The translations under genes and the position numbers were made by a program. 64,000 bases of DNA from an uncultured Flavobacteriales bacterium. GTDB taxonomy: Bacteria > Bacteroidota > Bacteroidia > Flavobacteriales_G > Salibacteraceae. The stretch lies in NCBI GenBank assembly GCA_963933405.1, contig CAWVSS010000002.1, positions 13,860-77,859 of the forward strand, given 5' to 3'. Positions 14,085 through 64,000 of the stretch are shown here, piece after piece. Positions within the stretch are counted from its first letter, which is position 1. The number at the start of each line of letters is the position of its first letter. The notes beneath the pieces were generated by a model. The model worked only from the letters and a program-made list of their open reading frames with translations, searched no databases and was not told the DNA's origin.

Positions 14085-14210
14085 CTAAGAATACTAGCTT
14101 TTATATCGTTCAATTTTTCCATTGGCTGAATCTTTAACAAATATCGATTTCATTGGAATGTCGGTAAAAAAATCTTTTTTATTCGACACTTAGTTTTATT
14201 ATTGCACCAA

Positions 14211-14365
14211 TAAAGGTTTTTAAGATTTTTTCAATCTGAAAATTAAAAGGGAATCAAGTGTAAATCTTGAACTGTTCCCGCAGCTGTAAGGTTGTTGTGC
14301 TTTTGTATCTCACGCCACTCTATTTATAGGGGAAGGCAACAAAAGATAAACCGAGTCAGAAGACC
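14211..14365 (+). promoter_or_regulatory. cobalamin (B12) riboswitch
   Basis: Conserved blocks are in the canonical order: AAAAGGGAA, GTGTAAATC, CTGTTCCCGCAGCTGTAAG, the B12 box CACGCCACT, GGGAAGGC and AGTCAGAAGACCTGCC. A P1-like AAAGG/CCTTT pairing closes the element. It sits directly upstream of a TonB-dependent receptor. Confidence 0.8.
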
Positions 14366-14428
14366 TGCCTTTTGAAATTGAGTTACATGAACCTCGGGAA
14401 AAGGGGATTAAAACTAAAGACTGTTTAA

Positions 14429-54736: not shown

Positions 54737-55183
54737 CTAACATTCCCAGAAATAGAAATTATTAGTTTGGTTTAACTCAAATCCTATTGAAGGATATAAT
54801 TGATTACCTATTGTATTTGATTTTTCAGTTTCTAACATTAACCCAGAGCTGCTCGTAGCCTTGGCTATCTGTTTCGCATTTTCAATCAATAATTTTGAAA
54901 TTCCATTACTTCTGTAATTTGAATTTACAAACAGGTCATTAAGAATCAATAAAGGTTTCATTTGGGTGGATGAAAAACTTGGATAAAGTTGTGTGAAACC
55001 AACTAGTACTTTAGCAGTTTCTGCAACTAGAATTGTAGAATCATTTAACGTTAATCGAGATGTTAAAAATAATTTTGCTTCGTTAACATTAGATTGTTTT
55101 TTATAGAAAACCCTGTAAGAATCAAAGAGAGTTGATAATTGGTCAAGATCTTCGATTGTTGCTTTTCGTATTTGAGTTGTCAT
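54737..55183 (-). CDS. GNAT-family N-acetyltransferase
   Basis: Acetyl-CoA motif-A-like NYRSNGISKLLIENA; 148 aa. ATGA overlap with the upstream ABC ATPase gene. Confidence 0.75.
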   Translation of the reverse strand: MTTQIRKATIEDLDQLSTLFDSYRVFYKKQSNVNEAKLFLTSRLTLNDSTILVAETAKVLVGFTQLYPSFSSTQMKPLLILNDLFVNSNYRSNGISKLLIENAKQIAKATSSSGLMLETEKSNTIGNQLYPSIGFELNQTNNFYFWEC

Positions 55184-55857
55184 AGTTTTAGATTTTCAAT
55201 GCTTTTGGATTGAGTTAAACTTTTTAGTTCATCTTCAAGTTCTGTGAACTGACCTGACTTTGCTGATTTCACAATTGTTCCATTATCAATAACATGAATT
55301 TCATCACAAGTATCAGCTAACGTTGAATATATGTGAGAGGAGATTAATACAATTTTATTCAATTCTTTCAATTTCTTAATAATCTCAGTAATGATAATAT
55401 TACTCTGAAAATCAACGCCATTGAATGGTTCATCTAAAACAAACACTTTATTTTTTTGGAGAAGACACCCCGTCAAAGCGAGCTTCTTTTTCATCCCGGT
55501 TGAATAAGTACTGGCATATTGATTAAGTGGCAAATCAAAAATATTCTGATCTTCAAAGTTTTCAATTTTAATGAATCGAGCGTTGCAAACAAGTTGTAAA
55601 TACTCTTTTCCTGTTATTTTTTCAAATAGGAAAGGGTTGGTTGCTAAATAACCCAAACTCGTACTTAGTTCTGTTTCTGATCTTATAATATTGCCTCTAT
55701 ATGACTCTAAACCAGTTATACATCTAAACAAAGTGGTTTTACCAGCGCCATTTTGGCCTACAATACCATAAACTTTACCTTTTTGTAGGGTTAATGATAC
55801 TCCTTTTAAAACTTGATTACTGCCAAACGATTTAGTAATATTTTTAATTTCAATCAT
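55180..55857 (-). CDS. ABC transporter ATP-binding protein
   Basis: Walker A GQNGAGKTT, signature YSTGMKKKL and Walker B VFVLDEPFNGVD. Confidence 0.85.
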   Translation of the reverse strand: MIEIKNITKSFGSNQVLKGVSLTLQKGKVYGIVGQNGAGKTTLFRCITGLESYRGNIIRSETELSTSLGYLATNPFLFEKITGKEYLQLVCNARFIKIENFEDQNIFDLPLNQYASTYSTGMKKKLALTGCLLQKNKVFVLDEPFNGVDFQSNIIITEIIKKLKELNKIVLISSHIYSTLADTCDEIHVIDNGTIVKSAKSGQFTELEDELKSLTQSKSIENLKL

Positions 55858-56770
55858 GCAAATAAGGCGTTAATGAATCAATTGACTTTGAGTAAAAATA
55901 TGGAATAAGTAACAGTAATAAAGGGGGAAGCAACATGCAAACTCCTAAACCAATGGCTTGATTAATATTCAACCCTGTTGGGTAGTATGCGTATTTCCCC
56001 AAAATAGAAGTTATTACATATAGTAATCCCAACAGAAGACCTCCTAAAATGATATGAACTTGGGTAATGTTAAATACTAGTAACAATAAAACCAGCGGTG
56101 ATGAAAGAAGTAATGCGTATTTAATGCTTATGATAGTCTTGTATTGTAAAAATTGTTTTGAGGAGTGTTGGTGCACCCAAACATAAAATTCAGGCTCTGA
56201 AACACTGTAATACGAGATAATAGTGAACATAATTAATGCTAACCCGAACATACCAAGATTGAAATTACCTACAACCGCTGAAATGATTACCAGAGCTACT
56301 GATACAATGTAAACCAATAGTGATCGCCTGAAGCCAACCGTAAACTCAAAAGGGAACATGTAGAATGGAGTAGGAATAGATTTGTTTAGCTTTAATTTGG
56401 TTGAATGATAGGACAGTAAAATTACTGTAACTAGCAGAGCAATTGACATTGCAAAGTGTTGGAAAACCATTAGAATTAATGCAAATAGCAATGACAGGCT
56501 AAGATTTTCAATAATTCTAATTTGCAAAAACTGTTGGTTTGAAAAATTGAATTTTAAAAAGTCATTTTTTTCTTTTTGAGAAGTTAACATCACGGCACCA
56601 ATGCCGGCACTAGAAACAATCAATGAACCAAAATCCAAATTTTTACAAATAAATACTGAAGTTCCTATAATAAAAAGTAGTAAAGCTAAAACACCTATTA
56701 GAGGATGAATTCCAAACTCTGCAATGGTTCTAAGAATCATTTTATAACGTAAATAGAAGTACAATTTCAT
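55850..56770 (-). CDS. polytopic membrane protein (putative permease partner of the ABC ATPase)
   Basis: About 8 hydrophobic segments, an 8-nt overlap with the ATPase gene, and no recognisable family motif. Confidence 0.5.
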   Translation of the reverse strand: MKLYFYLRYKMILRTIAEFGIHPLIGVLALLLFIIGTSVFICKNLDFGSLIVSSAGIGAVMLTSQKEKNDFLKFNFSNQQFLQIRIIENLSLSLLFALILMVFQHFAMSIALLVTVILLSYHSTKLKLNKSIPTPFYMFPFEFTVGFRRSLLVYIVSVALVIISAVVGNFNLGMFGLALIMFTIISYYSVSEPEFYVWVHQHSSKQFLQYKTIISIKYALLLSSPLVLLLLVFNITQVHIILGGLLLGLLYVITSILGKYAYYPTGLNINQAIGLGVCMLLPPLLLLLIPYFYSKSIDSLTPYLHD

Positions 56771-57183
56771 CGTTTGGCAATTTTAAACTTTATGTTCTAA
56801 TACCATGTAATTTAGAAATGTTAATAAAAGTTACATTTCTAAAGAACCAACTGAAATAATTAGATTGAGTCGCCGTTAGAAATGCCTATGAAAACCAATT
56901 CTATTCTTCTTTTTTAATTATTAACCTTAGTTTATTTAGGATGTGAAAAGAATCAAAAAAATGAATTCAAATTTTTAGAAAACTTATGGAGATGTTTATG
57001 AAGACAAAACAAAGCTTAACCTAATACATCGACAACATAATATATTGTTGGGGGTATTTATTTGAGTTTCGACTTTAGCTAACAATAGCTATTTCTTATC
57101 AAAACTTAAATTAATTCATTATTTTTCTTTGCTATGTAAATAAAAAAATCTATTTTCGACTTGAATTTAAAAACTATACAATT

Positions 57184-57378
57184 ATGTCAAAGGAAAAATT
57201 AGACGAAAAAGACTTAGAGAACGTAAGCGGTGGAGCAGGAATGAGATCTGTATCAAGAGAAAGCACAGATGAAAGAGCAGATGAAAACCATGAGGAAGAA
57301 GAAAGAGAAGATAGGGATGAACGAAATGACGGAATGGGTGACATGGGAAGAGTAGATCGTGAAGAGAGAAGAAGGTAG
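57184..57378 (+). CDS. double-glycine-leader precursor peptide with hyper-charged acidic core
   Basis: The leader MSKEKLDEKDLENVSGG has hydrophobic residues at -4/-7/-12. The 47-aa core contains 11 E, 7 D and 11 R. A strong terminator follows, and a C39-ABC export operon lies immediately downstream. Confidence 0.65.
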   Translation: MSKEKLDEKDLENVSGGAGMRSVSRESTDERADENHEEEEREDRDERNDGMGDMGRVDREERRR

Positions 57379-57395
57379 ATAATGTTAATTTAAAA

Positions 57396-57427
57396 AAACC
57401 GCTTTCATAAAAAGCGGTTTTTTTTTG
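57396..57427 (+). terminator. rho-independent terminator after the precursor peptide gene
   Basis: Perfect 10-bp stem aaaccgcttt / aaagcggttt with a 5-nt loop, running into a T-run of about 10 nt. Confidence 0.8.
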
Positions 57428-57472
57428 TTCATTTATTAGATTAATACCTTTAAATTATGTAATCTCGTGAAG

Positions 57473-59044
57473 ATGAATAGGCTATTTCTTTTTATTGCAC
57501 TTTTTGTTTTTTCTTCGGGAATTTATTCACAAAGCTCTTCGGAAATTGAATTTTTAATAGAGGCAGGTTTAAAAGATCAACCAAGCATTAAAATATCAAA
57601 AGATCAAATAATCTTGTCAAATGGATTGTTACAAGAGCTTAAGGGCGATTTTAATCCAACTTTAAATTTCTCGCTACAACGATCTCAAGATATTTATCCT
57701 GAAACTAAAATTTATCGTGAAGGTTACGTTGATGATCCTTCAGCTTCATATAGGTCTGATCTCTTTTCTTATAATCTTGAGGTAACCAAGCTATTTAAAA
57801 ATGGACTATACTTATCGCCAGGCGTAACACTTATAAATAATGGCAAGGATGCTTCGTATAGGCTATTAAAATCATTAGGAGAGGGGGAATATTTGACCAA
57901 TCGGTCTAACGTTTATTTAAAAGCTACACAACCTCTACTTAGAGGTAGAGGTAAAGATTATTATTCTGCTCAAATAGAAACTCAACAATTAAATGTTTCA
58001 GCAACTGAATGGGATTTTTACTACAATGTATCCTTTCAAGTTTATAACATTCTGAGTTCATATTTAGAATTTGTTGGAAACGCAAACAACTTAAAAATAC
58101 AAACCTCTGTAAAGGATAACTTGATGAAATTCAGAGAACAATTATCCCAATTAGCAGACAAGGATATAATTCCACAATCAGAATTGGTTTTGATAAACGC
58201 CAATGTTTCATCGCAAACGGCAGCGGTAAGACAAAGTAACTACTTTAAAGCCTTATACTTAAATAGATTGACTGAATCAATTGGCTGGCATAATGAAGAA
58301 GGGATAAGGTTACCTTTAAGTCCTGACACCTTTAGCTTTCCTGCATTGAATCTTTACGACTCTTCGAGCTATGTGGCTTACTGGATTTCAGAAGCAACGA
58401 AAAACAGGGGAGATATTATTGCCTCAACTAAAAGGTTAGAGGCAGCTAAAAGAAACATTCAATTTGCCGAAAGAAATAATCTTCCAACTTTAGATTTAAC
58501 TGCTTCAATTGGATATAATGGCATATATGAATCAAACTCTGTAGAACAATATTTATCGCCAATTTATTCAAACATACCTGGTATGAGCTATACAATTGGC
58601 GTCACATTTTCAAGACCCTTTGGAATGGACAACATGAAAGGTAATTTAGCAAGAACAGTTGCCACTAAAGACATAAATGAACAATATTTAAATCAAAGTA
58701 TTTTAAATCTTGAACAATCAATTTCGAGTGCATACACCGAAGTTATTAATTACCATGGAGCAGCAGCAGAAAGCAAAAAAGCCGTGCAATTCCACAAAAA
58801 AGCTCTTGACAATGAATACATTAAGTTAAAACTAGGAAGTTCAACTGTTGTTAATTTAATACAGGTTCAAAGAAATTATACACTATCGCAAAGCTCTTAC
58901 AACAACTATTTGAAGTTTTTGTATCAAGCAATTATAAAATTCAGATTACAGGTTGGTGAGATTGCAAAATTCACAAACTCTAAAGAAATAGAGATCAACC
59001 CTAATCAAATTTTAACCCTACCAAATCCGCTAAGTAATGAGTAA
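57473..59044 (+). CDS. TolC-family outer-membrane channel of the peptide export system
   Basis: Signal peptide MNRLFLFIALFVFSSGIYSQ and two TolC-like repeats. ATG at 57473, with a GTG alternative at 57467. Confidence 0.8.
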   Translation: MNRLFLFIALFVFSSGIYSQSSSEIEFLIEAGLKDQPSIKISKDQIILSNGLLQELKGDFNPTLNFSLQRSQDIYPETKIYREGYVDDPSASYRSDLFSYNLEVTKLFKNGLYLSPGVTLINNGKDASYRLLKSLGEGEYLTNRSNVYLKATQPLLRGRGKDYYSAQIETQQLNVSATEWDFYYNVSFQVYNILSSYLEFVGNANNLKIQTSVKDNLMKFREQLSQLADKDIIPQSELVLINANVSSQTAAVRQSNYFKALYLNRLTESIGWHNEEGIRLPLSPDTFSFPALNLYDSSSYVAYWISEATKNRGDIIASTKRLEAAKRNIQFAERNNLPTLDLTASIGYNGIYESNSVEQYLSPIYSNIPGMSYTIGVTFSRPFGMDNMKGNLARTVATKDINEQYLNQSILNLEQSISSAYTEVINYHGAAAESKKAVQFHKKALDNEYIKLKLGSSTVVNLIQVQRNYTLSQSSYNNYLKFLYQAIIKFRLQVGEIAKFTNSKEIEINPNQILTLPNPLSNE

Positions 59045-60278
59045 GGTATTTAGAGAAAAAGCTTTAGACAAGCTACAATCACCAGACCGACTAAATGAAA
59101 TGGTAACTATTATTTCAAGCCATACTTGGCTAGTTTTACTCGGAGCATCTATAGTAATTGGTTTTTTTATAAGCTGGACGATTATAGGTAAGCTACCAAC
59201 TCAAATTGGTGGTAACGGAATTTTACTGATGTCAGGTGGGGTCATGGATGTTTCTGCTATATCTCAAGGACAAATCAGTGAGGTTTATATAAAACCTGGT
59301 GATGCGGTAACAGAAGGTGATATTTTAGCAGAGATTAAGCAACCAGATTTGGAATTAAAGTATCTAAATTCTAAAGAACATGTTAGGTTACTGAAAGAAA
59401 GGTTCGAATCTATTAAAAATTATAATGACAAGGATTTGGCACAGAAGCGAAATCTGTTGGAACTAGACGCAAATAACAAGAATAAAAGAATAGAAAAAAA
59501 TATTGAAAGGATAGAGTTTGTAAATAACCAAATAAAATCGCGTACTGAATTATTAGATCAAGGATTAATAACAAATGAAAATTTAAATCAAACCAAAGAA
59601 ATGCTTTTCGAAATTGAACAGCAGAACCTAGTATTAAAGAATGAACTGGAACAAATTGAATTAAATCTTTTTGAGCAGGAAAAACAAACCGAATTTGAAC
59701 TGAGTAACTTAAGTGGCCAAATAATTGATGAAGAAGCAAACCTTAGAGAAATTAAATCTAAATTGGATATAAATTCTAAAATAAGGAGCCCTTACACAGG
59801 AAGAGTTGTAGAGCTAAAAGTGAACGCTGGTAAAATAATAGGTTCTGGAGCAGTAATATTATCGATTGAACGTACATTTTCAAATGAAGAATTAGAAGCG
59901 ATAATTTATGTCCCAGCCAATCAAGGAAAAAAAATTCGTTCTAAAATGGAAGTCAAAATTTCCCCTAGTACTGTGGAAGTTGAAAAATATGGTTTTATAA
60001 AAGGGGTAGTAATACAAGTATCTGAATATCCTGCAAGTTTTGAAGGTATGCTGAATACTTTAGGTAATAAGGAACTAGCATCTACTTTCTTTCAAGGAGG
60101 ATTGCCACCATTGGCTGTTCGGGTTAAACTAAAAAAGAACTTAGATGTACCTAGTGGCTATAATTGGACGTCAGGTGAAGGCCCTCACACTCAAATAAAA
60201 TCTGGTACGCTATGTTCTGCGAAAATTGTAGTAAAAAATAGAAGGCCTATCAGCTTAATATTTCCAGCTTTTGAATAA
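59037..60278 (+). CDS. HlyD-family membrane fusion protein (bacteriocin-export type)
   Basis: N-terminus FREKALDKLQSPDRLNEMV followed by a single TM helix, a long coiled coil, and a lipoyl/beta-barrel region. 8-nt overlap with the TolC gene. Confidence 0.8.
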   Translation: MSKVFREKALDKLQSPDRLNEMVTIISSHTWLVLLGASIVIGFFISWTIIGKLPTQIGGNGILLMSGGVMDVSAISQGQISEVYIKPGDAVTEGDILAEIKQPDLELKYLNSKEHVRLLKERFESIKNYNDKDLAQKRNLLELDANNKNKRIEKNIERIEFVNNQIKSRTELLDQGLITNENLNQTKEMLFEIEQQNLVLKNELEQIELNLFEQEKQTEFELSNLSGQIIDEEANLREIKSKLDINSKIRSPYTGRVVELKVNAGKIIGSGAVILSIERTFSNEELEAIIYVPANQGKKIRSKMEVKISPSTVEVEKYGFIKGVVIQVSEYPASFEGMLNTLGNKELASTFFQGGLPPLAVRVKLKKNLDVPSGYNWTSGEGPHTQIKSGTLCSAKIVVKNRRPISLIFPAFE

Positions 60279-60281
60279 ACT

Positions 60282-62474
60282 ATGACCAAAGAAGAAATCA
60301 AAAATCTTTCTGCCGTAAATCCAAATACGGTTACCACTACTGTTATACAAATGGAAGCAGTTGAATGCGGTGCGGCAAGTTTAAAAATGGTCTTAGGGTA
60401 TTTCGGGAAACACATATCTCTTGAAATGTTAAGAGAAGAATGCGGTGTAAACCGAGATGGTAGTAAAGCAATAAACATAATCAAGGCCGCGCGGAAATTT
60501 AATCTAGAGCCAGAGGGTTATAAAGTAGAGGAAGTTACGGGCCTTAAAGACATTGAGTTTCCTGCCATAATACATTGGAATTTCAACCACTTTGTTGTCT
60601 TAGAAGGGTTTAAAAAAGGGGTATTCTACCTTAATGACCCGGCAATGGGGCACAGGAAAGTTTCTTTTGATGATTTTAACGGTTCTTTCACAGGTGTAGT
60701 GTTAACATTCAAAAAAGGTGAGAGTTTTATTAAGTCAGGAAATAAAAGTAATTTACTTAATGCTTTAAAAGAAAGAACTAAAGGATACGAAAATGTTATT
60801 CTTGTGCTCTTTTTAGTAGGTTTATTACTAGTTATTCCTGGGCTAATTATCCCGATTTTTTCGAGAATATTTGTTGATGAAATTTTAATTTCACATGCCA
60901 CGGATTGGATATGGCCTTTGGTAGCAGGTATGGCTTTAACTGCCATTTTCAGAGCGTTACTTCAGTACTTTCAATTTAATTTATTAATGAAAGCCAAAAA
61001 CAAGCTAGACATTGTTTCTTCAGCTCAATATTTTTGGCATGTATTGAAGCTTCCAATTCAATTTTTTCACCAAAGAGATAACGGAGAAATTGGAAGTAGA
61101 ATCGTACTCAACAGTAAAATATCACATTTAATTACAGGTCAGATTGCTAGAAACCTTCTGGATTTAATTGTAGTTGTTTTCTATTTCATTTTAATGCTCC
61201 AATATGATTTAACATTATCTCTTTTAGCATTGTTTTTTGCCTTAATGAATATTATGTCAGTCAAGCTAATTGGTTCAAAACGTATTGAAAAATATTTTTC
61301 TCTTTCTGTTTCAAGTGGAAAATTGTATGGTATTACATTAGGTGGAATTAAAACGATTGAAACTTTAAAGGCGATGGGTCGTGAAAACGATTTTTTCGTT
61401 AAATGGAATGGAAGTTTTGCCAAAGTAATTAATCAAAAACAAAAACTTGCAGCATTTGAGGCGTATTTTAGATTAATACCGAGATTTATAGCACAATTTC
61501 AAACCTTAATTATTTTGATTTTAGGGTCTAGTAAAATTATGGATGGAGAACTTTCAGTTGGTATGTTAGTAGCCTTTCAAAGTTTAGTGTCTAGTTTTTC
61601 TGCTCCTATAAGTAGTTTAGTTGGACTAGGATCTAGTCTCCAAAAGCTTGAGGGTGACATGAATCGTATTGATGACGTAATGCGAGCTGAACCTGATCCT
61701 TCCATTGAGCAAAAGGTTATCATCCATGATGACAACTATCAAAAAATATCCAAAAAACTAGAGGGTTATATTGAGCTTAAGAACGTATCGTTTGGTTATA
61801 GTAAGGTCTCAGAACCTTTAATTTCTGATTTCTCACTTAAAATAAATCCTGGAGAAAGAATTGCTTTAGTTGGTGGTTCTGGTAGTGGTAAATCGACGGT
61901 AGCAAAACTTTTAATGGGATTTTATGAACCTTGGTCCGGCGAAATATTATTTGATGGAGTAAACCGCAAAGACCTTCCAAGGCAAGTTATAAATAATTCG
62001 ATTTCTATGGTTTCACAAGAAATTTATTTATTCCCTGGCCCAATACGAGACGTTTTGACTCTACATGACACAACTATAACTGACCACATGTTAGTAAATG
62101 CTTGTAAAGATGCTAACATCCATGAAATTATTGCTTCCAAGCCAAAGGCCTACGATTATGAATTAAATGAGGGTGGTAAAAACTTTTCAGGTGGCCAAAG
62201 ACAACGTTTAGAAATTGCTCGTGCAATGGTCACCAACCCAACTATGTTAGTTTTAGATGAGGCGACAAGTGCGCTAGATCCAACAACTGAGAAATTCATT
62301 GACGAAAATATTAAAAAACGAAAATGCAGTGTTGTCGTAGTCGCTCACAGGTTAAGCACTATTCGAGACAGTGATGAAATAATTGTTCTTGATAAAGGTA
62401 AAATTATTGAACGTGGGACTCACGAACAACTGGTTTCAAATAAAGGGCGTTACTATAATCTCATTAAAAGTTAA
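60282..62474 (+). CDS. C39-peptidase-domain ABC transporter (leader-cleaving peptide exporter)
   Basis: C39 catalytic elements are QMEAVECGAASL (Gln/Cys), NHFVVLEG (His) and LNDPA (Asp). It also has a six-TM domain, Walker A GGSGSGKST, signature FSGGQRQRL and Walker B LVLDEATSALD. Confidence 0.9.
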   Translation: MTKEEIKNLSAVNPNTVTTTVIQMEAVECGAASLKMVLGYFGKHISLEMLREECGVNRDGSKAINIIKAARKFNLEPEGYKVEEVTGLKDIEFPAIIHWNFNHFVVLEGFKKGVFYLNDPAMGHRKVSFDDFNGSFTGVVLTFKKGESFIKSGNKSNLLNALKERTKGYENVILVLFLVGLLLVIPGLIIPIFSRIFVDEILISHATDWIWPLVAGMALTAIFRALLQYFQFNLLMKAKNKLDIVSSAQYFWHVLKLPIQFFHQRDNGEIGSRIVLNSKISHLITGQIARNLLDLIVVVFYFILMLQYDLTLSLLALFFALMNIMSVKLIGSKRIEKYFSLSVSSGKLYGITLGGIKTIETLKAMGRENDFFVKWNGSFAKVINQKQKLAAFEAYFRLIPRFIAQFQTLIILILGSSKIMDGELSVGMLVAFQSLVSSFSAPISSLVGLGSSLQKLEGDMNRIDDVMRAEPDPSIEQKVIIHDDNYQKISKKLEGYIELKNVSFGYSKVSEPLISDFSLKINPGERIALVGGSGSGKSTVAKLLMGFYEPWSGEILFDGVNRKDLPRQVINNSISMVSQEIYLFPGPIRDVLTLHDTTITDHMLVNACKDANIHEIIASKPKAYDYELNEGGKNFSGGQRQRLEIARAMVTNPTMLVLDEATSALDPTTEKFIDENIKKRKCSVVVVAHRLSTIRDSDEIIVLDKGKIIERGTHEQLVSNKGRYYNLIKS

Positions 62475-64000
62475 TGGAGAATTTTATTAAACATATAAAA
62501 TCAATAGGCAAAGAATTTACTGTTCCTGTTATTGATCCTTTCATAGCTAATGATCCGAATAAAGTATGGTTTTTATTGGAAGGTGAGCTAAATTTATCTT
62601 CTACTATAGTAAAAGATGGTAAGCCTTATGGCAGGTTAAATAATTTTTTAAATATTCAACCCGGTGAGCTATTATTTGGGATTAAAGAAGAAGATTCAAA
62701 TGGATTAAGCTTTTTAGTTGATGCTAATGTTGAGAGTAAATTGGTTGAAATTCAATTATCCTCCATAAAAATTCATGCACAAAAAGATGAATTTTTTACA
62801 ATTTATTTAGAAAAAATAAATCATTGGGTTTGCAGATTATATGAGGGCGTTAAAGACGATACTTCTATTTCCCTTCCGGTTGTTACTGATTCATTGCATT
62901 TAAATTCTTCAGTCTTCACTTCTGAATCTAGGCCATTTGATTCAAATCAATCTGTGGTAATAATGTCTGATTTCGGTAAAAAAATCCTCTTTAATAACCA
63001 CATTCCTCTTCAAACAAACAATTGTTGTTTTCCTGTTGCAAAAAATCATTTTATTACCTTCAAAGAAGACTTTAAAGGTGAGGTGATTTCATTTGAAGAC
63101 GCTTTGTTTAATGATCTAATTTGGGAAGGCATCGAACAGTTGAGCGCATGTGTCTTATCAAGTGATTTGTACGAAAAGAACATTGAAGAATCTCGCGAAG
63201 CAAAAAGACTAGAGGCCAAGTACCGTAACCAAGATAAACAGTTTATATCTTCACTTTCACAAATTAAAAGTGTTTTTAAGCCCACTGAAGATTTTAAATT
63301 AGATTTCAAAACCAAAGATCACTTTTTTAACGCCTGTCAGTTGGTTGCTTCGAGCGATAATATAGAATTAAAACAACCTAATATCTATAGTAAGAATTCT
63401 GATAAAATAGCAGAAATTTGTCGTTATTCAGGAATTAGATACAGAGAAGTTCTTCTAGAGGGTGACTGGCTCAACGAAAACAATGAAGATGCCTTTCTTG
63501 GTTTATACGGACCAAACAAAACTCCAGTAGCCGTTGTTCAAAAAAACGGTAAACTTCATTGTGTCAACCCAGAATCAGAAGAGGTATTTGAAATCACTAA
63601 AGAGCATATTACTCAATTTCAACAAGAAGTATATAATTTTTTCAAACCTTTTGATGACAACAAAAAACTTTCGATAAAAGACATCTTTCTTTTTTCCTTT
63701 TCAAAAAACAAAAAAGATCTAATAACTCTATTGTTTATGGGTTTTTTAGGTAGTACACTTGGTCTCTTGACTCCGATTTTAAGTGCTCAAATTTTTGACT
63801 CTGTAATTCCAAATGCGGACAAATACCAGCTTTATTTTATTGCAATTGCTCTTTTCTCAATGGCCTTGGGCGCTATGAGTTTCGATATGGTAAAAGGGTT
63901 TGCTCTATTAAGAGTGCAAGGTAGAATGGATTTTAAACTGCAATCAGCTCTATGGGATAGATTATTAAATCTCCCAAGTGATTTTTTCAAAAAATATAGT
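62474..64000 (+). CDS. second ABC transporter subunit (3'-truncated by window end) with cNMP-binding-like and C39-like (possibly degenerate) N-terminal domains
   Basis: This ORF is not in the ORF track because it has no stop in the window. I translated it manually from the ATG in the TAATG overlap: MENFIKHIKSIGKEF...VWFLLEGELNLSS...IQPGELLFG, then DHFFNACQLVASSDNIELKQP...RYREVLLEGDWLNE, then TM helices (LLFMGFLGSTLGLLTPILSAQIFD). The frame is open to nt 64000. Confidence 0.75.
   Translation, partial: MENFIKHIKSIGKEFTVPVIDPFIANDPNKVWFLLEGELNLSSTIVKDGKPYGRLNNFLNIQPGELLFGIKEEDSNGLSFLVDANVESKLVEIQLSSIKIHAQKDEFFTIYLEKINHWVCRLYEGVKDDTSISLPVVTDSLHLNSSVFTSESRPFDSNQSVVIMSDFGKKILFNNHIPLQTNNCCFPVAKNHFITFKEDFKGEVISFEDALFNDLIWEGIEQLSACVLSSDLYEKNIEESREAKRLEAKYRNQDKQFISSLSQIKSVFKPTEDFKLDFKTKDHFFNACQLVASSDNIELKQPNIYSKNSDKIAEICRYSGIRYREVLLEGDWLNENNEDAFLGLYGPNKTPVAVVQKNGKLHCVNPESEEVFEITKEHITQFQQEVYNFFKPFDDNKKLSIKDIFLFSFSKNKKDLITLLFMGFLGSTLGLLTPILSAQIFDSVIPNADKYQLYFIAIALFSMALGAMSFDMVKGFALLRVQGRMDFKLQSALWDRLLNLPSDFFKKYS

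Follow-up and report, generated by a model that had tools for sequence, protein, structure and literature searches.

Peptides exported by transporters of the ATP-binding cassette (ABC) type that carry a C39 peptidase domain are normally regarded as bacteriocins, natural-product precursors or pheromones, and annotation pipelines call such open reading frames (ORFs) "bacteriocin" from the leader alone. We analysed a 64,000-nucleotide stretch of DNA (64 kb; hereafter the window) from an uncultured marine Flavobacteriales bacterium of the Salibacteraceae, in which a 64-residue peptide with a predicted double-glycine leader and a strongly acidic core is encoded at 57184-57378 (+), ahead of a C39-ABC exporter. 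On balance, we favour reading this ORF as a precursor gene with its own promoter-like site and terminator, whose acidic, disordered product would be exported unmodified as the cargo of a four-gene, envelope-spanning exporter.

Among the closest described systems are the class II microcins, such as MccV, in which the precursor CvaC is exported by CvaB, CvaA and TolC. The window resembles them in having an unmodified precursor with a double-glycine signal (here predicted); in a C39-ABC protein with a Cys/His/Asp triad, a HlyD-type adaptor and a TolC-type channel for one-step export across two membranes (here as the genes suggest); and in a cargo that is not cationic (PMC10233263). It differs from them in several respects: the unit lacks an immunity gene; genes for the outer-membrane factor and for a second ABC subunit form part of the operon; the organism that carries it is a marine Flavobacteriales bacterium and not an enterobacterium; and the core, with 4 Gly, is 62% charged, predicted to be disordered and devoid of hydrophobic segments, whereas microcins are Gly-rich and consist on average of ~61% hydrophobic residues.

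The exporter genes themselves belong to a described three-gene export cassette (TIGR03794/TIGR03796/TIGR03797) that is tied to NHLP and Nif11-type precursors (Haft et al. 2010, PMC2887384); membership is by curated cut-off or, for TIGR03797, by a strong match of a partial protein. Unlike the precursors of that cassette (TIGR03793 / TIGR03798), the window precursor has no NHLP or Nif11 leader domain, only a 17-residue transport signal; its core is not rich in Cys, Ser or Thr; no cyclodehydratase or LanM gene lies nearby; and the window cassette adds a gene for an outer-membrane factor.

Bacteroidetocins (PMC6671954) come from the same phylum and share with the window peptide a double-glycine leader of 15-17 residues, a mature peptide of ~42-47 residues, a C39-ABC exporter and the lack of an immunity gene. 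However, they contain four Cys, require a linked thiol oxidoreductase and a linked protein with five transmembrane segments, and use a different export cassette, whereas the window peptide has no Cys and neither gene accompanies it. The pneumococcal VP1, BriC and Rtg peptides are likewise leader-cleaved, exported by C39-ABC proteins and present as multiple alleles, with functions other than killing or still unknown (PMC7595303, PMC7018657), so that C39-ABC cargoes need not be toxins (PMC7595303). These Gram-positive peptides are short, are not acidic low-complexity sequences and are linked to Rgg or competence circuits, whereas the window peptide has no linked regulator.

Results

An acidic, lysine-free core behind a double-glycine leader

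Translation of 57184-57378 (+) gives exactly the 64-residue product reported in the first-pass annotation of this DNA, MSKEKLDEKDLENVSGGAGMRSVSRESTDERADENHEEEEREDRDERNDGMGDMGRVDREERRR. It comprises a 17-residue double-glycine leader, MSKEKLDEKDLENVSGG (57184..57234, +), with a predicted cut after Gly17, and a 47-residue core followed by a stop codon, AGMRSVSRESTDERADENHEEEEREDRDERNDGMGDMGRVDREERRR (57235..57378, +), of which approximately the first 20 residues are near-invariant among alleles and the tail is hypervariable. By script, the core contains 11 Glu, 11 Arg, 7 Asp, 4 Gly, 3 Met, 3 Ser, 2 Ala, 2 Asn, 2 Val, 1 His and 1 Thr (Ser and Thr together 4), and no Cys, Phe, Ile, Lys, Leu, Pro, Gln, Trp or Tyr. 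This count reproduces the earlier hand count (11 Glu, 7 Asp, 11 Arg, 1 His) and its list of absent residues, as well as the net charge of -7 and the charged fraction of 62% (61.7% for Asp, Glu, Lys and Arg; 63.8% with His). The predicted mature peptide (AGMR...ERRR) has a monoisotopic mass of 5648.49 Da, an isoelectric point of 4.6 and a grand average of hydropathy (GRAVY) of -2.33. Among 20,716 stop-free 47-residue segments in the six frames of the 64 kb, the core ranks first in charge, and the next distinct region reaches 0.47. AlphaFold2, run with a five-sequence alignment, models a short helix in the leader, at residues 8-11 only, and the whole core as coil, with a predicted local distance difference test (pLDDT) score of 53-64.

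Searches with the window peptide and its sister peptides against curated families (Pfam, NCBIfam) returned leader-level matches only and no core family. The first-pass annotation had placed the core outside the known cargo classes, and this stands: no curated family matches it, and its GRAVY of -2.33 contrasts with the ~61% hydrophobic residues of microcins (PMC10233263). The accompanying premise that known double-glycine cargoes are typically cationic is overstated, as microcins are mostly neutral or anionic (PMC10233263).

Lys is absent from the core, and Arg numbers 8-11, in all four alleles (window 57235-57375, P0001, P0002 and P0004). The Lys codons AAA and AAG are one transition away from the GAA and AGA codons used in the core; 4 Lys occur in the leader, and the preference of the genome is strongly for Lys.

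The leader has the hydrophobic positions that had been annotated, V14 (-4), L11 (-7) and L6 (-12) relative to G16-G17, as read directly from the sequence; position -8 is Asp, not Glu. In LahT, the peptidase groove buries the Val at -4, the Leu at -7 and the Leu at -12 of the leader, 13 leader residues suffice, and very diverse cores are tolerated (PMC6363468). The window leader agrees with this recognition pattern of LahT and ComA (PMC6363468). The last 13 residues of the window leader, KLDEKDLENVSGG, fit most positions of the NHLP/N11P cleavage motif (PMC2887384), with L at 2 and 7, acidic residues at 4 and 6, V at 10 and GG at 12-13. Against TIGR01847 (bacteriocin_sig) the window leader scores 15.6 bits (cut-off 15.7) and the L007 orthologue 16.0; the NCBIfam search gave no match of the window peptide to an NHLP or N11P domain even at E <= 1.

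The reading frame is a genuine coding sequence

The peptide ORF is a genuine, selected coding sequence. The first-pass annotation had raised the concern that a purine-rich tract might yield Glu, Asp, Arg and Gly codons by chance, in which case the frame would not be kept in orthologous loci; four close alleles retain the frame. Purines make up 79% of the core DNA, but its mononucleotide shuffles leave the frame open in 4% of cases only and encode 7.3 Lys on average, with a probability of 4e-5 for no Lys at all; Lys makes up 71% of the basic residues in the long ORFs of the window, which gives P ~1e-6 for 11 Arg and 0 Lys; and G is distributed over the three codon positions of the core as 26/16/7, with position 1 the richest (chi-square p = 0.003). 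Because of these shuffle, Lys and codon-position results, the core composition is explained neither by DNA bias nor by the amino-acid usage of the genome. Moreover, a hidden Markov model of the leader built from relatives has its sole match in the whole window at the peptide ORF (E = 1.9e-10).

The protein search returned four close relatives. The five sequences agree fully over residues 1-27, have T or E at position 28 and are otherwise nearly invariant up to approximately residue 37; beyond this, the tail varies, with insertions and deletions (indels). Among the four full-length alleles, all DNA indels are multiples of three, and the nucleotide changes in the leader are all synonymous, leaving its amino-acid sequence unchanged. 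The remaining relative, P0003 (L032:200-382), has a frameshifted C-terminus; it lies on a 545-bp contig with a coverage of 1, and sequencing error is the likeliest cause.

We rejected a frameshift origin of the core, as neither of the remaining sense frames is open and no frame-shifted homology appears when its DNA is aligned to L007. The 56-residue Ser/Leu-rich ORF on the opposite strand (57174-57344, -) mirrors the purine-rich core and is no gene but a shadow ORF.

A small transcription unit ahead of its own exporter

Bacteroidetes promoters have the consensus TTTG at -33 and TAnnTTTG at -7. We take the sequence TTTG-N19-TATTTTCG at 57128..57158 (+), at which a sigma-70 scan found nothing, to be a promoter-like site of this type. 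Its downstream part falls within a conserved block, TCTATTTTCGACTTGAA (57149-57165), which is invariant in the window, L001 and L007, although the L007 locus lies in a different genomic neighbourhood. Downstream of the ORF, an intrinsic terminator consists of the hairpin AAAAAAACCGCTTTCATAAAAAGCGGTTTTTTT followed by a T-run (57392..57432, +; 1 site in the scan vs 0.2 expected), and its stem carries a compensatory change in L001 (CCAC...GTGG). A hairpin and T-run of their own, different in sequence, are found at 15 of the 17 other peptide genes examined in related loci, with no clear hairpin and T-run at L017:5932 and L018:5705. The layout is that of a small gene, strongly terminated, ahead of its own exporter. 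An Rfam search returned no RNA family at the peptide locus. A short (T)TAAA(A)C motif, roughly -10 to -20 from the ATG, recurs before most leader-bearing ORFs across otherwise unalignable lineages.

Four genes for an envelope-spanning exporter follow. The first encodes a TolC-like outer-membrane factor of 523 residues from its ATG (57473..59044, +; PF02321 OEP, 7e-24), for which the ORF list gives a GTG start at 57467 and which is identical (100%, 523 residues) to P0005. The second encodes a HlyD-type membrane-fusion protein of the NHLP bacteriocin export system (59037..60278, +; TIGR03794, 328 bits vs a cut-off of 156), and the third the C39-peptidase ABC exporter (60282..62474, +; TIGR03796, 1000.6 bits vs a cut-off of 853; PF03412, 1.9e-34). 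The C39 domain has the catalytic triad, Cys29, His103 and Asp119, with the same spacing as C32/H105/D121 of CvaB (PMC10233263), and the whole protein aligns over its full length with PCAT1 (4ry2, 4e-106) and ComA. The fourth gene (62474..64000, +, cut by the window end) encodes a second ABC subunit without a recognisable peptidase domain, whose partial protein matches TIGR03797 at 1.9e-52; in relatives it has 964 residues, and the full gene is present in L001-L004 (L001:15290-18184). Approximately 280 N-terminal residues of this subunit precede the start of the TIGR03797 model; no Pfam domain was found ahead of the membrane domain at residue 417, and a BLASTP comparison of the N-terminus with the C39 domain of the partner protein found no similarity.

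These Pfam and NCBIfam matches agree with the earlier proposal of a double-glycine-leader peptide positioned as cargo for the adjoining C39-ABC exporter. In the syntenic contigs L001-L006 and L030 the gene order is peptide, outer-membrane protein, HlyD, C39-ABC and second ABC, after which comes an unrelated DUF6580 gene on the opposite strand. The concern had also been raised that a different precursor might lie beyond the window end; in the syntenic contigs, no further leader-bearing ORF occurs within or after the cassette, and L001 has only the one.

Divergence is concentrated in the peptide gene

Comparison of the window with L030, two otherwise near-identical strains, revealed 39 differences in 10 kb, and 26 of them map to 57179-57431, which spans the peptide gene and its terminator. 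The changes in the three exporter genes number 6 synonymous and 0 non-synonymous, with a rate of synonymous substitution (dS) of 0.002-0.012, whereas the peptide gene has a dS of 0.16-0.23 and one codon indel. As the L030 allele is similar to L001 in its 5' part, the pattern suggests a small recombination patch rather than point mutation alone. Relative to L001, the exporter genes have ratios of non-synonymous to synonymous rates (dN/dS) of 0.03-0.17, and the exporter is evidently under purifying selection. In the L007 lineage, the leader half of the peptide gene is more conserved than the background (1.8% vs ~4-6%), and the core half is about twice as divergent. The tail has a dN/dS of 0.4-1.1 and a dS far above that of the flanks, values that come from an ambiguous low-complexity alignment with likely recombination; for these two reasons we rejected the tail dN/dS as a clean test of selection.

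Sister loci carry other acidic, cysteine-free cargoes

Using the outer-membrane protein as a handle for distant loci, we found the orthologous cassette in metagenome-assembled genomes of marine Flavobacteriales and Salibacteraceae; a metagenome scan with a profile of the same protein added 5 loci, mostly duplicates. A peptide gene and the four exporter genes occur together in three different neighbourhoods: a GNAT/ABC side (window, L001), a YjeF/Por-tail side (L007) and a UvrD side (L012, L017, L018, L020 and L021). This co-occurrence shows that the five genes are inherited as one unit. Wherever upstream sequence is available in the Flavobacteriales and Salibacteraceae loci, one to five ORFs with the leader subtype ..[DE]LENVSGG|AG. 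lie before the outer-membrane gene, and leader-bearing ORFs precede the cassette even where that gene is only 37-46% identical. The Bacteroidales loci L023 and L024, whose outer-membrane proteins are 34-35% identical, have no double-glycine ORF upstream and were left out of the comparison.

The cores are of two kinds. The first has the sequence LPDYMxGMSKEEIGQVMxDPDFVGTPEWQEIMDLN followed by a charged tail (L007, L012, L013, L017, L020 and L027) and is modelled by AlphaFold2 as a small helical domain (pLDDT 68 overall, core ~80), for which the PDB gave no fold match at E <= 10. These helical-core sister peptides (P0012-P0045) are like the window peptide in their leader subtype (..DLENVSGG|AG.), in their position before the orthologous cassette, in having their own terminators, and in being acidic and Cys-free with a mostly basic C-terminus. 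They differ from it by the conserved helical domain (pLDDT ~80), the presence of aromatic residues and a copy number of 1-5, and they match no Pfam or NCBIfam family and no PDB fold. No homology between the window core and the helical sister core was detectable with hhalign (probability 0.2%). A profile of the helical family scores window-type peptides weakly (E = 5e-7 to 1e-5, and 1.4e-4 in another search, vs 1e-35 to 1e-14 for true members), presumably through the shared leader.

The second kind comprises single low-complexity acidic cores: the window type and those of L018 (AGVEARREEESFDEGGREEERREGDSGMSDEARLEKFKRENESRD), L022 (ASMGRNDGRDAGVDGSMDEMRKEDEHKDPHAGEQELGHEGGNPHEMDSGRGAAR) and L021 (AGMGIHPSSGDDGSQPLMEGDENSSELNRPDHGQDQDDHHDHDADQQHGLHDHGI, His/Asp-rich). 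The L018, L021 and L022 cores cannot be aligned to the window core; those of L018 and L021 sit at the UvrD-flanked site at which the multi-copy helical type is also found. All 14 tabulated cores have a net charge of -2 to -13 and 0 Cys, and most have a basic C-terminal cluster.

The His/Asp-rich type is conserved over 15 alleles and dozens of Tara Oceans contigs. This sister cargo (...DHHDHDADQQHGLHDHGI; L021:5463-5678, L028:1-120, P0058-P0072) varies in a modular manner (GQDQD / GQDQG / DHGHD; HD / EN / HN) that looks combinatorial, and its sequence looks like a metal-binding motif.

When 1.84 billion representative proteins were searched exhaustively with a profile, 11 matched, 6 of which are the present peptide set; the L018, L021 and L022 types were not recovered. 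The remaining matches are large proteins matched in several stretches; inspection of one, P0052, showed a kinesin-like protein from a eukaryote, with tandem repeats. Judged from this search, the peptide set found by the profile is rare and narrow. P0054 (240 residues), from the search of representative proteins, contains four tandem segments resembling double-glycine leaders, ELSAQALEEVAGG, ELSAQELENVAGG, ELSPQDLEDVRGG and ELSDQELDNVAGG, with short cores between them, and may be a concatenated multi-cargo precursor.

Other features of the loci

No modifying enzyme lies within ~10 kb in any locus examined, and none of them has a linked gene for a histidine kinase, a response regulator or another receptor. 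No immunity-like small membrane ORF is conserved with the peptide-exporter unit, and the flanks differ among loci. In the window, a divergent operon at 54737-56770 (-) encodes a 306-residue multi-pass membrane protein without a Pfam match, an ABC ATPase and a GNAT acetyltransferase. Its linkage to the cassette is limited to the window lineage (window, L001 and L030) and is not seen in the L007 or UvrD-side loci. A cobalamin riboswitch is present at 14197-14386 (+; RF00174, 109.7 bits).

Discussion

Our analysis suggests a conventional export mechanism for an unusual cargo: the C39 domain would bind the leader helix via V-4, L-7 and L-12 and cut after Gly17; the 47-residue core would be threaded out via the ABC pair, the HlyD adaptor and the outer-membrane factor, all in a single step; and, because no modifying enzyme accompanies the unit in any locus, the core would leave the cell unmodified. 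We regard this sequence of events as probable from the genes.

What the peptide does outside the cell is a matter for more tentative proposals. The likeliest single option, which we put forward with less than even confidence, is that the mature peptide is a disordered, strongly acidic polyampholyte that would act extracellularly through its composition (charge, carboxylates and guanidinium groups) and not through a fold or as a sequence-specific ligand; it could bind cations, or charged surfaces or polymers. We favour such a role because the sister lineages keep acidity, hydrophilicity and the absence of Cys, favour Arg over Lys and mostly have a basic C-terminus, despite full replacement of the core sequence, and because one sister cargo is His/Asp-rich. 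For the chelation of metal or mineral cations that the first-pass annotation proposed, this His/Asp-rich cargo would be the sole hint, and an indirect one. Several points weigh against it: the mixture of Glu and Arg is largely self-neutralising, unlike classical Ca- or metal-binding peptides, and a single His is present in the window core; no gene for an uptake receptor or sensor adjoins the peptide locus; the tail dN/dS of 0.4-1.1, from an unreliable low-complexity alignment, is also compatible with relaxed constraint; and the sharp peak of divergence between near-identical strains would be better accounted for by antagonism or pherotype-like diversification than by a bulk physico-chemical role. 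In addition, our view covers 64 kb of the genome, and other cargoes, modifying enzymes or receptors may be encoded elsewhere.

The strongest of the alternatives, though in our judgement an unlikely one, is that of a class II microcin-like toxin. In this case an antibacterial without modifications would leave the cell by way of the C39-ABC protein, adaptor and outer-membrane channel, and competitors would import it via a receptor. The export architecture is that of the MccV CvaAB-TolC scheme, and an anionic cargo agrees with the mostly neutral or anionic charge of microcins (PMC10233263); the leader is conserved and the core hypervariable; the peptide gene and terminator account for 26 of the 39 differences that separate near-identical strains; and sister loci contain 3-5 tandem paralogues, as bacteriocin loci do. 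The unit lacks an immunity-like small membrane ORF, a point that is not decisive, as double-glycine toxins of Bacteroidetes, such as the bacteroidetocins, can be without immunity genes (PMC6671954). Further points against a toxin of this class are the GRAVY of -2.33 and the lack of both a hydrophobic segment and Cys, compared with ~61% hydrophobic residues in microcins (PMC10233263), and the fact that between lineages composition is conserved and sequence is not, which is unexpected for a toxin that targets a receptor. NCBI and JGI pipelines do name relatives, including the His/Asp-rich type, "bacteriocin", but the leader model is the sole source of this name, as none of the cores matches a family.

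A signalling role is less probable still. In this case the ORF would encode a pheromone-type double-glycine peptide whose alleles define strain-specific groups, and allelic hypervariation on a near-identical background is indeed known for the CSP, BIP, BriC and VP1 alleles (PMC7595303); a separate small transcription unit ahead of the exporter would also fit. However, no receptor, histidine kinase or response regulator is linked to the unit in any locus, a 47-residue low-complexity polyampholyte would make a poor specific ligand, and the near-invariant part is the N-terminal ~20 residues of the core and not the tail.

We consider it very unlikely that the ORF encodes a ribosomal natural-product precursor with a core modified by enzymes encoded elsewhere, as are many NHLP/Nif11 substrates of the same cassette. 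The cassette was defined for NHLP/N11P precursors, which can lie far from their modifying enzymes (PMC2887384), and a GNAT acetyltransferase gene is present 2 kb upstream on the other strand; but the leader has 17 residues only and no NHLP or Nif11 domain match, the core offers 0 Cys, 4 Ser/Thr and no Lys for acylation, no modifying enzyme lies within ~10 kb in any locus, and the GNAT gene is absent from the L007-type and UvrD-side loci.

Two further alternatives are highly improbable. That the ORF is decaying or accidental, a low-complexity stretch rich in purines that remained once a functional cargo had been lost, might be argued from the 79% purine content, the tail dN/dS of ~1 in some pairs, the lack of detectable homology to the helical sister cores and the frameshifted variant P0003; against this, shuffled DNA rarely stays open (4%) or lacks Lys (P = 4e-5), every real indel keeps the frame, the leader and the first ~20 core residues are near-invariant, the promoter block and terminator are retained, the strong purifying selection on the exporter would be purposeless without a cargo, a single acidic cargo is kept in three independent lineages (in one of them over 15 alleles), and the frameshifted variant sits on a 545-bp contig of coverage 1. 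The first-pass annotation had noted a resemblance of local runs such as HEEEEREDRDER and DREERRR to ER/K single alpha-helix motifs; a helix of this kind, which would make the core a rigid rod, is not supported, for opposite-charge i,i+4 pairs are at shuffle level (8 vs 7.9 +/- 2.2), the longest stretch free of Gly, Pro, Ser, Asn and Thr is 12 residues, the core has no Lys and contains 7 Asp and 4 Gly, and AlphaFold2 predicts it without helix.

In the literature on class II microcins in Bacteroidota, NHLP/NHLM export and acidic double-glycine peptides we found no description of such cargoes. The window peptide is best filed as a new cargo type on a secretion route that is itself already known and whose export logic is conventional. 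Its composition is unusual and demonstrably under selection, and peptides of the set abound in ocean data. A wider reading, which we offer as possible but doubtful, is that the NHLP-type C39-ABC/TolC exporter of marine Flavobacteriales secretes an undescribed class of unmodified, disordered anionic peptides (E/R-rich, His/Asp-rich or acidic-helical) that act by composition, for instance by binding metal or other cations, or charged polymers and surfaces, outside the cell, and that diversify rapidly between otherwise identical strains.

In conclusion, the cargoes of one exporter lineage that is common in ocean metagenomes are acidic, Cys-free and hydrophilic, and some of them are Lys-avoiding low-complexity polyampholytes with fast turnover. 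If these peptides are secreted and act by charge or by metal binding, they would constitute a new functional class for the C39-ABC route and an overlooked extracellular peptide of seawater; if they are toxins instead, they would widen the range of what microcins look like.

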